This document shows, piece after piece, positions 4,120-63,420 of a stretch of DNA of 64,000 nucleotides. Below the pieces are notes generated by a model, which saw only the letters and a program-made list of their open reading frames with translations, did no database searches and was not told the DNA's origin. The first letter of the stretch is position 1, and every line of letters starts with the position of its first letter. The stretch comes from Octopus vulgaris (lineage: Eukaryota): NCBI GenBank assembly GCA_951406725.2, contig OX597836.1, positions 37,572,001 through 37,636,000 of the forward strand. Reading direction: 5' to 3'. Made by a program: the position numbers and the translations under genes.

Positions 4120-4680
<561 letters not shown>

Positions 4681-18564: not shown

Positions 18565-19165
18565 CAATAGGCACAAAGCCTGAAATTTTAACGGAGTGGA
18601 ATTGGTTGATTACATAGAATATAGTATTCGGCTGGTACTTATTTTATCGACCCCAACGGATGAAAGGCAAAGTCATCCTTAGCAGAATTTGAATTCAAAA
18701 CTGGAAGAAATGCCGCTAAGTATTTAGCCTGGCCTACTGGTGTTTCTTATTTCGTTATTGCTCACATGGGGCTAAACATAGAGACGACAAACAAGGACAG
18801 ACAAAGGGATTAAGTCGATTACATCGACCTCAGTACGTAACTGGTACTTAATTTATTGACCCCGAAAGGATGAAAGGCAAAGTCACCCCCGGCGGAATTT
18901 GAACTCAGAACGTAACGGCAGACGAAATACCTATTTCTTTATTACCCACAAGGGGCTAAACACAGAGAGGACAAACAAGGACAGACATAGGTATTAAGTC
19001 GATTACATCAACCCCAGTGCGTAACTGGTACTTAATTTATCGACCCCGAAAGGATGAGAGGCAAAGTCAACTTTGGCGGAATTTGAACTCAGAACGTAAC
19101 GGCAGACGAAATACCGCTAGGTATTTCGTCCGGCGTGCTAACGTTTCTGCCAGCTCGTCGCCTTA
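18565..19165 (-). mobile_element. Cluster of SINE family B copies, including a head-to-tail dimer (18745-19163)
   Basis: Repeated CGACCCCGAAAGGATGAAAGGCAAAGTC; junction GACGAAATACCTATTTCTTT at ~18921-18940. Confidence 0.85.
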
Positions 19166-29769: not shown

Positions 29770-30131
29770 ACATTATAATGGTTATTGACAATTTTGTCTT
29801 TTTTTCGGCATATTAGGCATTAGAATTTTTCTACTGCCCTTATTTTGTAAATTATTTATAAATTTAACCTTTAAAAGTATTTTTTGATATGCTGGCCATT
29901 GATAAAAAATTTTTCTCGAAAGAAATTTTATCCTACATTAGTCATAAATTAAATAGTGTTCACTTCCGGATTCTCTCACTCTGTGGAAGTTTCTAGTTCG
30001 AATCACACGTGTCTCGAGAGGTGCCAAAGATTTTCTATTTTGGATATATTTGGGGTACTTAGGTCTGCTCAGGACTTAGTGCTTGCTTTTTCCATGGGTA
30101 TGAGTAAGTATTTCACTTATATCCCACGTAT

Positions 30132-30192
30132 TTATCGCTGAAGAGGGGAAAATTCTTATGAATTAACCCCGAAATTGGGACCAATACGGTAA
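30132..30192 (+). ncRNA. Type I hammerhead ribozyme (copy 1)
   Basis: UUAUCG-CUGAAGA-GGGG(AAAAUUCUUAUGAAUUAA)CCCC-GAAA-UUGG(GA)CCAA-UA^CGGUAA; all core residues canonical, G10.1-C11.1 present, cleavage predicted after 30186. Confidence 0.85.
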
Positions 30193-30410
30193 TAACGGAT
30201 TTTTTAGAAATTTCTATCGGTTTGTTTCGAGACGCATAAATTATAATGGTTATTGACAATTTTGTCTTTTTTTTCGGCATATTAGGCATTAGAATTTTTC
30301 TACTGCTCTTATTTTGTAAATTATTTATAAATTTAAACTTTAAAGGTATTTTTTGATATGCTGGCCATTGATAAAAAATTTTTCTCGAAAAAAATTTTAT
30401 CCTACATTAG

Positions 30411-30608: not shown

Positions 30609-30917
30609 TTTCTATTGCCCTTATTTATAATATATATTATATAAATTTGACCTTTAAAGGTATGTTTTGATATTGCTGGCCATTGATAAAATGTTTTTCT
30701 CGAAAAAAATTTTATCGTACATTAGTCATAAATTAAATAGTGTTCACTTCCGGATTCTCTCACTCTGTGAAAAAGTTTCTAGTTCGAATCACACGTGTCT
30801 CGAGATGTGCCGAAGATTTTCTATTTTGGATATATTTGGGGTACTTAGGTCTGCTCAGGACTTAGTGCTTGCTTTTTCCATGGGTATGAGTAAGTATTTC
30901 ATTTATATCTTACGTAT

Positions 30918-30978
30918 TTATCGCTGAAGAGGGGAAAATTCTTATGAATTAACCCCGAAATTGGGACCAATACGGTAA
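30918..30978 (+). ncRNA. Type I hammerhead ribozyme (copy 2)
   Basis: Identical to 30132-30192; cleavage predicted after 30972. Confidence 0.85.
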
Positions 30979-31106
30979 TAACGGATTTCTTAGAAATTTC
31001 TATCGGTTTGTTTCGAGACGCATAAATTATAATGGTTATTGACAATTCTATCTTTTTTTTCGGCATATTTGGCATTAGAATTTTTCTACTGCTCTTATTT
31101 TGTAAA

Positions 31107-35495: not shown

Positions 35496-35636
35496 TGTGT
35501 GTGTGTGTGTATATATAAATAGATGAGTGTATTTTTACCTTGTTAACAATTAACAAGGAAAAATAAATAAATAGTTACCAGGGCAGCACAACATAAAAAA
35601 TATTTGATTACACCTGCGTTAACTCCATTTTTTTTA

Positions 35637-35675
<39 letters not shown>

Positions 35676-37162: not shown

Positions 37163-37421
37163 CAACAAGATATTATTTTTCTCACGTTAAATGGAAACAA
37201 ATGTGTTTAAAAGATTGCAAAAAGGAAGTGCTCAAATGAAACTGAGACAGAGATTAAAAAAAAGAAAAAGAAAAACATTGATTAGAGAACAAAGATCAAA
37301 TTCGAGGCAACGACTTTATATAACACCATGCATTTGATCATATATAAATATTTTCAGGAGCGGTTGACTCCAACCTACCTTGGTTGAACTTTTTTGACAT
37401 AGAATCGGGTTTTGAAAGAAT

Positions 37422-37763
37422 ACAGGGGCTTCTGAAAATTCTTTCAAAACCCGATTCTCTTCGCATAAAAATTCCTTTAAATACCCCGAAAATAGGACGA
37501 AGACCAGCCTGGCGAAATATATCAGGGAATTAAAAGAAAAAGAAGCCCGACCTTTCAACGTGACATGGAGTATTTTGGATAGAGCTGCACCATACAGGCA
37601 AGGTAAACATAAAAGCCCCCTCAAGTGCGATTTATGCCTGCTGGAGAAATATTTCATTTTATTCCAGGACAATAATTCTTTAAATCAAAGAAGCGAACTC
37701 TTGAATTCTTGCAGACACGCAGCTAAATTTAAAATGTCGGCTAGCAATATACCATATGGATAG
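37422..37763 (+). pseudogene. 5'-truncated Penelope-like GIY-YIG endonuclease C-terminal ORF (open frame)
   Basis: TGASENSFKTRFSSHKNSF...TSLAKYIRELK...WSILDRA...CDLCLLEK...LNQRSELLNSCRH; 21-bp inverted repeat at the 5' junction. Confidence 0.85.
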
Positions 37764-45174: not shown

Positions 45175-45254
<80 letters not shown>

Positions 45255-45293
45255 TTTTTTGTGCATCTTGATGCTGACATAAGTTCCTTGCTT

Positions 45294-45376
45294 TTTTCCT
45301 GATGAGAAGGCGGCATAATACACCCCTTATTCCTTCGAAATTAGGAATATGCAGCCTTCGAAACATATGTCGAAAA
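45294..45376 (+). ncRNA. Fully canonical type I hammerhead ribozyme
   Basis: UUUUC-CUGAUGA-GAAGGC[..GCAUA...UAUGC..]GCCUUC-GAAA-CAUAUG-UC^GAAAA; GUC triplet, palindromic ACAUAUGU stem III, cleavage predicted after 45371. Confidence 0.85.
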
Positions 45377-45423
45377 TAAAATGAAGGAATTTTGTTAATT
45401 CGTCGTTCAACTCCATTCTTTCA

Positions 45424-45477
<54 letters not shown>

Positions 45478-47017: not shown

Positions 47018-47433
47018 GGCGACGAGCTGGCTGAACCGTTAGCACGCCAGGCGGAATGCGTAGCCGTATTTCGTCTGCCGTTACGTTCTGAGTTCAAATT
47101 CCGCCGAGGTCGACTTTTCCTTTCATCCTTTCGGGCTCGATAAATTAAGTACCAGTTACGCACTGGGGTCGATATAATCGACTTAATCCAAATGTCTGTC
47201 CTTGTTTGTTCCCTCTGTGTTTAGCCCCTAGTGGGTAGTAAAGAAATAGGTATTTCGTCTGTCGCTACGTTCTGAGTTCAAATTCCGCCGAGGTCGACTT
47301 TGCCTTTCATCCTTTCGGGGTCGATAAAATAAGTACCAGTTACGCAGTGGGGTCGATGTAATCGACTTAATCCCTTTGTCTGTCCTTGTTTGTCCTCTCT
47401 GTGTTTAGCTCCTTGTGGGGTAGTAAAGAAATA
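47018..47433 (+). mobile_element. SINE family B head-to-tail dimer
   Basis: Full monomer plus a 5'-truncated monomer joined at AAAGAAATA|GGTATTTCGTC; ATTCATACATTCGAT flanks both sides. Confidence 0.9.
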
Positions 47434-58857: not shown

Positions 58858-59138
58858 TGTGTGTTATCGCATGTACGGATGCGGATCAGTCCATATCTTG
58901 CAGACTTAATTACAATTTCTGCTTGCCAAGCAGCTCTCGTAATCTCTGTAAATGTCTTGTGTATTATTAAGACTTTGATTCGTATTAAATTTCTTCCACG
59001 AGCATTCTACTTCATACCACTTGAATCATATGTCCAATGTACTTATATATATTTGACATAAATATTTATAAAATGTTTCTTTTCAGAGCAAGACACATTT
59101 ATTTTGCACATTTAACTTCACGTTTGCAATATGGCGGA

Positions 59139-59531
59139 GATGAAGAAGCAAGCACCCTTTAGTAACATTGCTTTAATCCAAGTAACAATTTTATCTATTT
59201 TGTTTATTAATACTCCAATTGTCATATCAGTGTCTTCCACTGAAATTCTCGTAGACTGCTTTTATCAAAGATGAAGAAGCAAGCACCCTTTAGTAACGTT
59301 GCTTTAATCCAAGTAACAATTTTATCTATTTTGTTTATTAATACTCCAATTGTCATATCAGTGTCTACCACTGAAATTCTCGTAGACTGCTTTTATCAAA
59401 GAAGAAGAAGCAAGCACCCTTTAGTAACGTTGCTTTAATCCAAGTAACAATTTTATCTATTTTGTTTATTAATACTCCAATTGTCATATCAGTGTCTACC
59501 ACTGAAATTCTCGTAGACTGCTTTTATCAAA
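59139..59531. repeat. Tandem repeat, 3 x 131 bp, near-identical units
   Basis: GA(T/A)GAAGAAGCAAGCACCCTTTAGTAAC starts at 59139, 59270 and 59401. Confidence 0.95.
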
Positions 59532-59539
59532 GTCATAAC

Positions 59540-62889: not shown

Positions 62890-63420
62890 GTAAACGGATT
62901 TAATTAAGATAAAAATAAGGATGGCGCTCTCTTGGCAGTAAATGTCTTATCTAAGCCGGAGGTCGAACGTACGTAGGAGTCGTTAAGGAAATTTCTTTTG
63001 AATGTTTTTAATCTTAGTATTGCATTTGATACTAACACAACGATTGTGAATTTTTCAGGCGTCACACATAATTCTAAACACCAAATTATATTACCCTTAC
63101 CGGAACCCAAATCAAACATTATAATATATAAACGTTTCTTCTTATCATCCTAGATTGACCCTCAATAGTATCATTATGGTTATCTCTATTAGAATATCCA
63201 ACCTATCAGCAAACATAGAGATTTTTAATGTACATGCCCTATTTTATAATCAAGCCCTAAGATTAAACAGCTTTCATGATTATATTTTCTACATCCCTGA
63301 CACCAAACTCAAATCCAAATTTGCAAATCTCCCATATGACAATCTTGAAATTGCTAAAACGATTTCTTCCTTAAATTATAAAAGTATAAGAAAATCTTTC
63401 GTTAACCATGCTAAACTTCA
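62890..63420 (+). pseudogene. Penelope-like reverse transcriptase C-terminal relic
   Basis: FNLSIAFDTNTTIVNF, YYPYRNPN, YINVSSYHP, ISIRISNLSANIEIFN..ALFYNQAL (cf. VNFLDV..YRKP..S.HP..RIS.LS). Confidence 0.75.

Follow-up and report, generated by a model that had tools for sequence, protein, structure and literature searches.

A hammerhead-bearing island in a TA repeat of Octopus vulgaris as the probable truncated end of a variant Hydra-clade Penelope-like element

The window analysed here, a 64,000-nucleotide stretch of Octopus vulgaris DNA, contains a 176 bp island embedded in TA repeats (45252..45427, plus strand) that carries the elements of a hammerhead ribozyme. The question raised by this locus is whether such an island is a small mobile unit in its own right or a piece of a larger element. 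An earlier note, made from the sequence alone, had read it as a PLE-type hammerhead inserted in a TA microsatellite and, further, as a single monomer of a minimal retrozyme; the former part of this reading stood and the latter did not. The explanation that we favour, at a probability of roughly 85%, is that the island is the 5'-truncated end of a Penelope-like retrotransposon (PLE), made by the copying of uncut RNA at a cut TA repeat from an end site termed T1.

The presence of a GUC type I hammerhead between TA arrays was confirmed, each of its elements being found where the earlier note had placed it. All lie on the plus strand. Stem I is formed by 45294..45298 (5' strand) and 45372..45376 (3' strand), both seen in the fold and in subfamily pairing, and a distal part of the same stem pairs 45284..45289 with 45384-45389 (85% paired, no two-sided change). 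The catalytic core CUGAUGA, C3-A9, occupies 45299..45305, with N7 and position 6 variable between subfamilies. Stem II (45306..45359) comprises 6 bp (45306-45311/45354-45359) and, beyond a G.A mismatch, a 5 bp extension (45313-45317/45348-45352) closed by a 30-nt loop, within which a consensus fold places an inner hairpin (45330-45334/45343-45347). The remaining elements lie at 45360..45371 and consist of the core GAAA (45360-45363), the palindromic helix III (45363-45370) and C17 (45371). The conserved core CUGANGA / GAAA / UH around three helices is present, and from its sequence the hammerhead is assigned to type I with a predicted cut after 45371. The description of the island as almost entirely hammerhead was too generous, as the hammerhead proper (45284-45389) makes up ~60% of it. 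The closing ~45 nt fold into a hairpin of their own at the 3' end of the element (45380..45425), which has a bulged inner helix, lies directly 5' of T1 and is in competition with distal stem I.

A degenerate descriptor built from both halves of the core gave 5,760 matches in the 2.8-Gb genome against none with a reversed control, which together with covariation argues that the hammerhead is not a chance arrangement. Stem covariation among homologous copies had been proposed as a check in the earlier note and was found. When 10 sequences representing several subfamilies were compared, 91% of the 257 cells were paired, against 34-51% in slid controls, and 6 of the 26 hammerhead pairs were changed on both sides, four of these in stem II (4/11 pairs there). 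This number was equalled in 3 of 500 shuffles, a count that serves as a guide only and not as a probability, the 10 rows being related. A search of Rfam with the island gave no match at the gathering score, the fold of the whole island is unremarkable (z = -1.7), and the active monomer fold lies 2.7-3 kcal/mol above the MFE. The hammerhead is, as had been claimed, unrelated to the others in the window, since the family model matches strongly only the island and not those at 30138 and 30924. The latter are two identical type I hammerheads (30131-30193 and 30917-30979) that stand 786 bp apart in a partial tandem broken by TA arrays, with a CUGAAGA core and a 5-bp helix III with a 2-nt loop, and they are probably PLE ends of another family.

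Of 145 distinct copies, 123 have a perfectly palindromic helix III. The two main forms of this helix differ by a two-sided central change, with a G-U form bridging them, and this change between subfamilies can pair in a dimer only. The calculated energies are +2.4 kcal/mol for the hairpin versus -7.0 kcal/mol for the self-duplex. The prediction of a PLE-type hammerhead that probably needs a dimer agrees with these values and with the conservation of the palindrome. The modelled ribozyme is predicted to cut solely when dimerised or assisted by protein, and in the family it probably cuts rarely. Competition between the hammerhead and the T1 hairpin is predicted to reduce the active fraction by a factor of 1 to 50, according to the subfamily; the T1 hairpin is 88% paired with one-sided changes only and has no covariation support, and a conformational switch between the two structures is a weak idea.

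A search of the octopus genome with the island gave 46 matches of 95-100% identity, from 40 scored of 2,491 candidates. Most of these homologs extend upstream and many reach ~150 nt further downstream. Upstream lies a ~530-nt 3' UTR, preceded by an ORF of ~895 aa with reverse transcriptase (RT) and GIY-YIG motifs, the latter including YIG-R-E-N. These alignments identify the island not as a free mini-element but as a pLTR arm of a Hydra-clade PLE of subfamily A, truncated at the 5' end and spanning -119 to +56 from the predicted cut. On its own it is an ordinary fossil fragment, one of thousands, and is likely to be inert.

The proposal that the island is a single minimal-retrozyme monomer was rejected, as its homologs run upstream for kilobases into the RT and GIY-YIG ORF. 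In the parts of the literature drawn on, retrozymes are non-coding tandem units of 150-450 bp (PMC7229834) that descend from PLE pLTRs (bioRxiv 10.64898/2026.07.22.740005), and the island resembles the animal non-LTR retrozymes described in both sources in its type I hammerhead, its PLE ancestry and its small size, which sits at the lower edge of the monomer range. The island family differs from them in being neither tandem nor non-autonomous and in having no unit boundaries. No same-strand neighbour at 150-450 bp was found in the 100 and 96 copies sampled from two subfamilies, the nearest being at 1.7 kb, and short tandems occurred in 0/196; the sole tandems found have a period of 3,624 bp with the whole ORF inside. 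Homologs lead into a PLE ORF, so the family is not non-autonomous. Both edges of the island vary between copies, the 3' edge being a PLE end site and the 5' edge (-119) reading in the alignment as a truncation point and no unit boundary, and release of a circle would be impossible with one hammerhead. A monomer of a non-autonomous tandem-repeat retrozyme, spread through small circular RNAs, is therefore very improbable.

The parent element is abundant. Exact matches numbered 755 for a 25-nt core probe and 2,149 for a 3' probe, with none for the controls, and a protein search of the genome gave 10,076 candidates, with an 899-aa open frame in 20 of the 150 listed. These frames belong to a young sister subfamily (B) in which 3,624-bp tandems are 99.9% identical and the hammerhead stands 268 nt ahead of the start codon. 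Among the subfamily A ORFs opened, frames are of 741-833 aa and none is fully intact. Pfam gave no match to two pieces of the ORF and a word-indexed protein search with the endonuclease region gave none at E <= 0.001, while a full HMMER search gave 8,461 matches; motifs and homologs assign the endonuclease as a C-terminal GIY-YIG. The predicted protein structure has a mean pLDDT of 80 with two disordered spacers, and the top match in a fold search was telomerase RT (E 6e-9). The ORF is under purifying selection, endonuclease included (RT dN/dS 0.04; endonuclease dN 0.24, with synonymous sites saturated). Partial tandems (pLTR), an inverted 5'-truncated copy, a one-sided tail and a hammerhead in the pLTR are PLE traits seen in the family.

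Several further features of the family were noted. The two spacers (residues 490-557 and 634-750 of protein P0001) evolve fast, are Asn-rich in subfamily A and resemble the N-rich inserts of rotifer Penelope ORFs. An 11-nt sequence ahead of the hairpin at a second end site, T2, is complementary to one immediately preceding the start codon in subfamilies A, B and D (L054, oriented 4420-4520; L048 and L057 alike), and the helix that this complementarity predicts would enclose T2 and may gate translation. A possible intron across T2 has a donor-like site at ~+165 and an acceptor-like site before the start codon in A and D, not in B; no splice joint, start or end was found in contigs covering the pLTR (from four runs guessed to be RNA). 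At L054:7189-9591 (oriented 410-2812) a 1-kb inverted repeat and RT-like coding sequence of an unrelated PLE abut a subfamily B tandem, an example of the nested PLE insertions that accumulate in TA arrays.

The ends of the element were numbered from the predicted hammerhead cut and were sampled with exact probes at the first places on contig C1, with flanks of 0.5-1.5 kb: 100 places for the probe of subfamily A, and 96 for that of subfamily B after four of its 100 had been dropped as one tandem array. In subfamily A 68 ends were at T1 (about +52..+70) and 32 at T2 (about +205); in subfamily B there were 51 at T1 and 41 at T2 (about +222), the other four being one odd end and 3 arms internal to tandems. 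The island itself belongs to the T1 arms. A hairpin precedes each end site, that at T2 showing two-sided changes in 3 of 8 pairs (5/500 shuffles). TA-type repeat follows the 3' end in 92/100 (A) and 92/96 (B) against a window background of 6-12%, and precedes the 5' end in 14/100 (A) and at most 8/96 (B). Copies are thus not always (TA)n-flanked, a point that the earlier note had proposed to check, and the island, with TA at both sides, is a minority case.

The two end sites are paired in a strict manner. Inverted events joined T1 to T2 in 80 of 83 cases overall (41 of 43 events in A and 39 of 40 distinct events in B), three rows having been dropped as internal arms of tandems already counted. 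The exceptions were two T1/T1 events in A and the odd end in B, with T2/T2 never seen, and the excess of T1/T2 is far beyond an even split (80/82 classed events vs 50%, P 7e-22). Paired arms share a source, an arm's own partner being its best match in 8/10 (A) and 20/22 (B) cases. Arms without a visible partner inside the fetched 0.5-1.5 kb numbered 42/100 and 24/96, respectively. Overlap between the arms is absent from 20 of the 80 mixed pairs, whose T2 arm stops downstream of +60, and in these neither arm can have been copied from its partner by fold-back. Later deletion of the palindrome centre could also have removed overlap. The idea that the T2 arm collides with the T1 site on the same RNA molecule was unconvincing, with ~5 of 22 short T2 arms stopping at +55..+70. 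A miniature inverted insertion of subfamily F lies in the window itself at ~35513-35640, with an inverted T2 arm joined to a non-overlapping T1 arm, no hammerhead, and TA flanking both sides. A tail at one end only is known qualitatively from PLEs, in the sections of two papers drawn on (PMC3846280; PMC8557442). A literature search, with subscription papers and bioRxiv supplements outside its scope, found no count of such strict end pairing and no tail this long.

The 5' ends bear on the nature of the RNA template. The cut site is spanned by 86/100 arms in A and 90/96 in B, and a pile-up of 5' ends at the cut, the fossil trace of cleavage, was not found in these samples, with 1 end in A and 3 in B falling within 3 nt (P 0.16 for B). 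In subfamily A 30 of 100 arms end at -141..-160 (P 2e-14), with one in the next 20 nt upstream, and subfamily B shows less pronounced clustering at the corresponding position near -167 (8 of 55 in-range ends, P 0.04). This upstream pile-up could be a microhomology hot spot. A further 8 ends in B lie at -9..-16, at the base of stem II (P 2e-4, uncorrected for multiple windows), and may reflect pausing of the RT at a folded stem. Upstream of the 5'-end edge, subfamilies A, C, D and F carry what we take to be CRE-like and TATA-like words, absent in B, and a putative transcription start is placed ~153 nt upstream of the cut. The template is likely to be a linear, uncut transcript starting near this edge, since most arms span the cut and 5' ends pile up ~150 nt upstream of it. 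Judged by the fossil ends, most of the RNA that is copied carries the hammerhead uncut, and unprocessed RNA was likewise the main substrate for Poseidon_Ac in vitro (PMC11167929). The only candidates for a cleaved template are L208 and the inverted pair L132/L133 (G000:C1:32832659-32832762), joined at the helix III palindrome, in which one arm starts at the predicted cut. The island stops 34 nt short of the 5'-end edge and so has no promoter of its own; lacking also a second ribozyme, its hammerhead copy is likely to be inert.

For this family the identity of the parent, the T1 and T2 ends, their inverted pairing, the TA preference and the loss of linker cysteines described below are established, and the following course of insertion is proposed. 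Transcription would begin in the pLTR, ~153 nt before the predicted cleavage position of the hammerhead. Both strands would be cut within (TA)n by the RT-endonuclease, one cut end then priming at T2 and the opposite one at T1, and the two cDNAs would be joined head to head through microhomology. Failure of one arm would leave a lone arm between two TA tracts, of which the island may be an example. T1 would be the point at which reverse transcription first started, copying a short stretch of uncut element RNA, with the right-hand array (45427..45475) as the putative primer side of target-primed reverse transcription. The left-hand array (45178..45252), at a place where homologous copies carry element sequence, is likely to be pre-existing target that was joined to the truncated 5' end via TA microhomology. 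Dual internal initiation on an uncut template matches the in vitro results for Poseidon_Ac in the portion of that study drawn on (PMC11167929). That each insertion of the family is made by one asymmetric complex, priming at T2 and T1 150 nt apart on uncut leader RNA and without the linker zinc finger, is put forward only tentatively, at a little under even odds.

The same parent element might instead be inserted by a single priming event at T2 and subsequent fold-back or self-priming, the T1 end then arising by endonuclease resolution, or be copied from RNA that was cleaved and religated into a circle. In the excerpts consulted, self-priming (PMC3846280), endonuclease resolution of the tail (PMC8557442) and circles (PMC4209133) have each been proposed for PLEs. 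Many pairs share a nearly identical 5' end position, the 99.9% identical 3,624-bp tandems are compatible with rolling-circle copying, and a religated circle would likewise span the cut site. Fold-back sits poorly with the 20 of 80 pairs in which the arms do not overlap, and in a circle no boundary would be expected at -153, yet 30 of 100 A arms stop there. We consider these routes rather unlikely, and dual priming on a linear transcript remains the preferred reading.

The ORF carries the Hydra motifs RIRWL (RW) and SDKTR (DKT), and its endonuclease lacks CCHH and has CxxC and CxH flanking the conserved E and N. According to the sections of Craig et al. drawn on (PMC8557442), RW/DKT, CxxC with CxH and the absence of CCHH define the Hydra clade. 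The CxCX5C linker is largely gone, with one of its four cysteines kept in subfamily B and none in A and D. It is carried by 31 of 34 homologs with a placeable endonuclease, 15 of 50 rows having been dropped where the endonuclease start was not placed by pattern. In an RT tree that contained no other PLE clade and no named Hydra reference, and from which 12 of 44 rows had been removed because they lacked RT anchors, the family lies on a long branch nested beside a linker-bearing protein (support 96/82); "no linker" labels in this tree were unused, several deriving from truncated or extended proteins. This position next to a linker-bearing protein indicates that the loss is derived, and on these sequence grounds we file the family as a derived Hydra-clade variant rather than a typical member. 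The cysteine-less segment is constrained (dN 0.19), as is the endonuclease core (0.24, synonymous sites saturated), in comparison with the Asn/Ser spacer (0.69). A literature search for linker-less Hydra elements found no report, subscription papers and bioRxiv supplements being outside it.

It has been proposed, in the part of the Craig et al. paper drawn on, that the linker drives microsatellite targeting of PLEs (PMC8557442). The linker-less family has kept its TA preference (92/100 in A, 92/96 in B), which disfavours this idea unless the family moved in trans. Were it mobilised by another Hydra protein encoded in this genome, one with the linker, the TA preference would be uninformative on the linker, and a suitable source does exist: loci L277-L288 belong to a second, young Hydra family with an intact CxCX5C linker and many 727-aa frames, which has a minimal hammerhead of its own ~1 kb past the stop. 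Trans mobilisation is nonetheless improbable, as the family's own ORF is under purifying selection, endonuclease included, an 899-aa frame stays open in 20 of the 150 listed copies, and the ends of the two families are unrelated. The second family also constitutes a natural control for the linker question.

Set beside known systems, as far as the text drawn on from each source describes them, the family shares with the Hydra clade, including Hydra-1_Obim (PMC8557442), the RW and DKT motifs, a C-terminal GIY-YIG without CCHH, CxxC and CxH around E and N, a canonical hammerhead, (TA)n insertion and an inverted 5'-truncated copy. Hydra-1_Obim, itself from a cephalopod, differs from it in protein and hammerhead sequence when the two are compared by eye. 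The family also departs from that clade in its 3.6 kb unit and ~895 aa ORF (<3 kb in the clade), its tail of 150-165 nt (30-40 in the clade), the lost CxCX5C linker, two low-complexity spacers and a long branched stem II. Poseidon_Ac of the green anole (Frangieh et al., 2024, PMC11167929) likewise has two internal RT starts that define a tail, an AT-rich target, a hammerhead upstream of the starts and an unprocessed RNA template. Its start sites are adjacent, lie inside the ORF and show no strand difference in vitro, whereas those of the octopus family lie in the 5' UTR with ~150 nt between them and are used almost strictly one per side. The minimal hammerheads of PLEs (Cervera and de la Pena, 2014, PMC4209133) are similarly type I, with a long helix II, a short helix I and a palindromic helix III, and occur mostly as single motifs from truncated PLEs, with opposite-strand pairs 100-700 bp apart. 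From these the family is distinguished by the lack of an extra base between A9 and G10.1, an 8-nt palindrome and a 30-nt structured loop II.

Elsewhere in the window, tblastn and translation revealed fragments of other Hydra-type families, an endonuclease piece at 37416-37751 and an RT piece at 63053-63382. Tandem repeats lie at 18748-19115 and 47066-47433 (184 bp each) and at 59138-59532 (131 bp), the 184-bp units presumably being a common SINE-type repeat.

PLEs are the closest relatives of telomerase, and the origin of their inverted ends and one-sided tail is debated, with self-priming, endonuclease resolution, circles and internal initiation all having been proposed. In this family T1 and T2 are spaced widely enough for the ends to be told apart in thousands of copies across the genome, and the near-strict rule of one site per side, together with the non-overlapping arms, discriminates between these models. 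With the linker gone, the family is in effect a natural knockout for the motif that has been put forward as directing PLEs to microsatellites. If the scheme is true, the young subfamily B with its intact ORFs would suit the testing of both asymmetric priming and linker-free targeting. The family is a new variant in the Hydra clade, and its ends make the question of PLE insertion a testable one.
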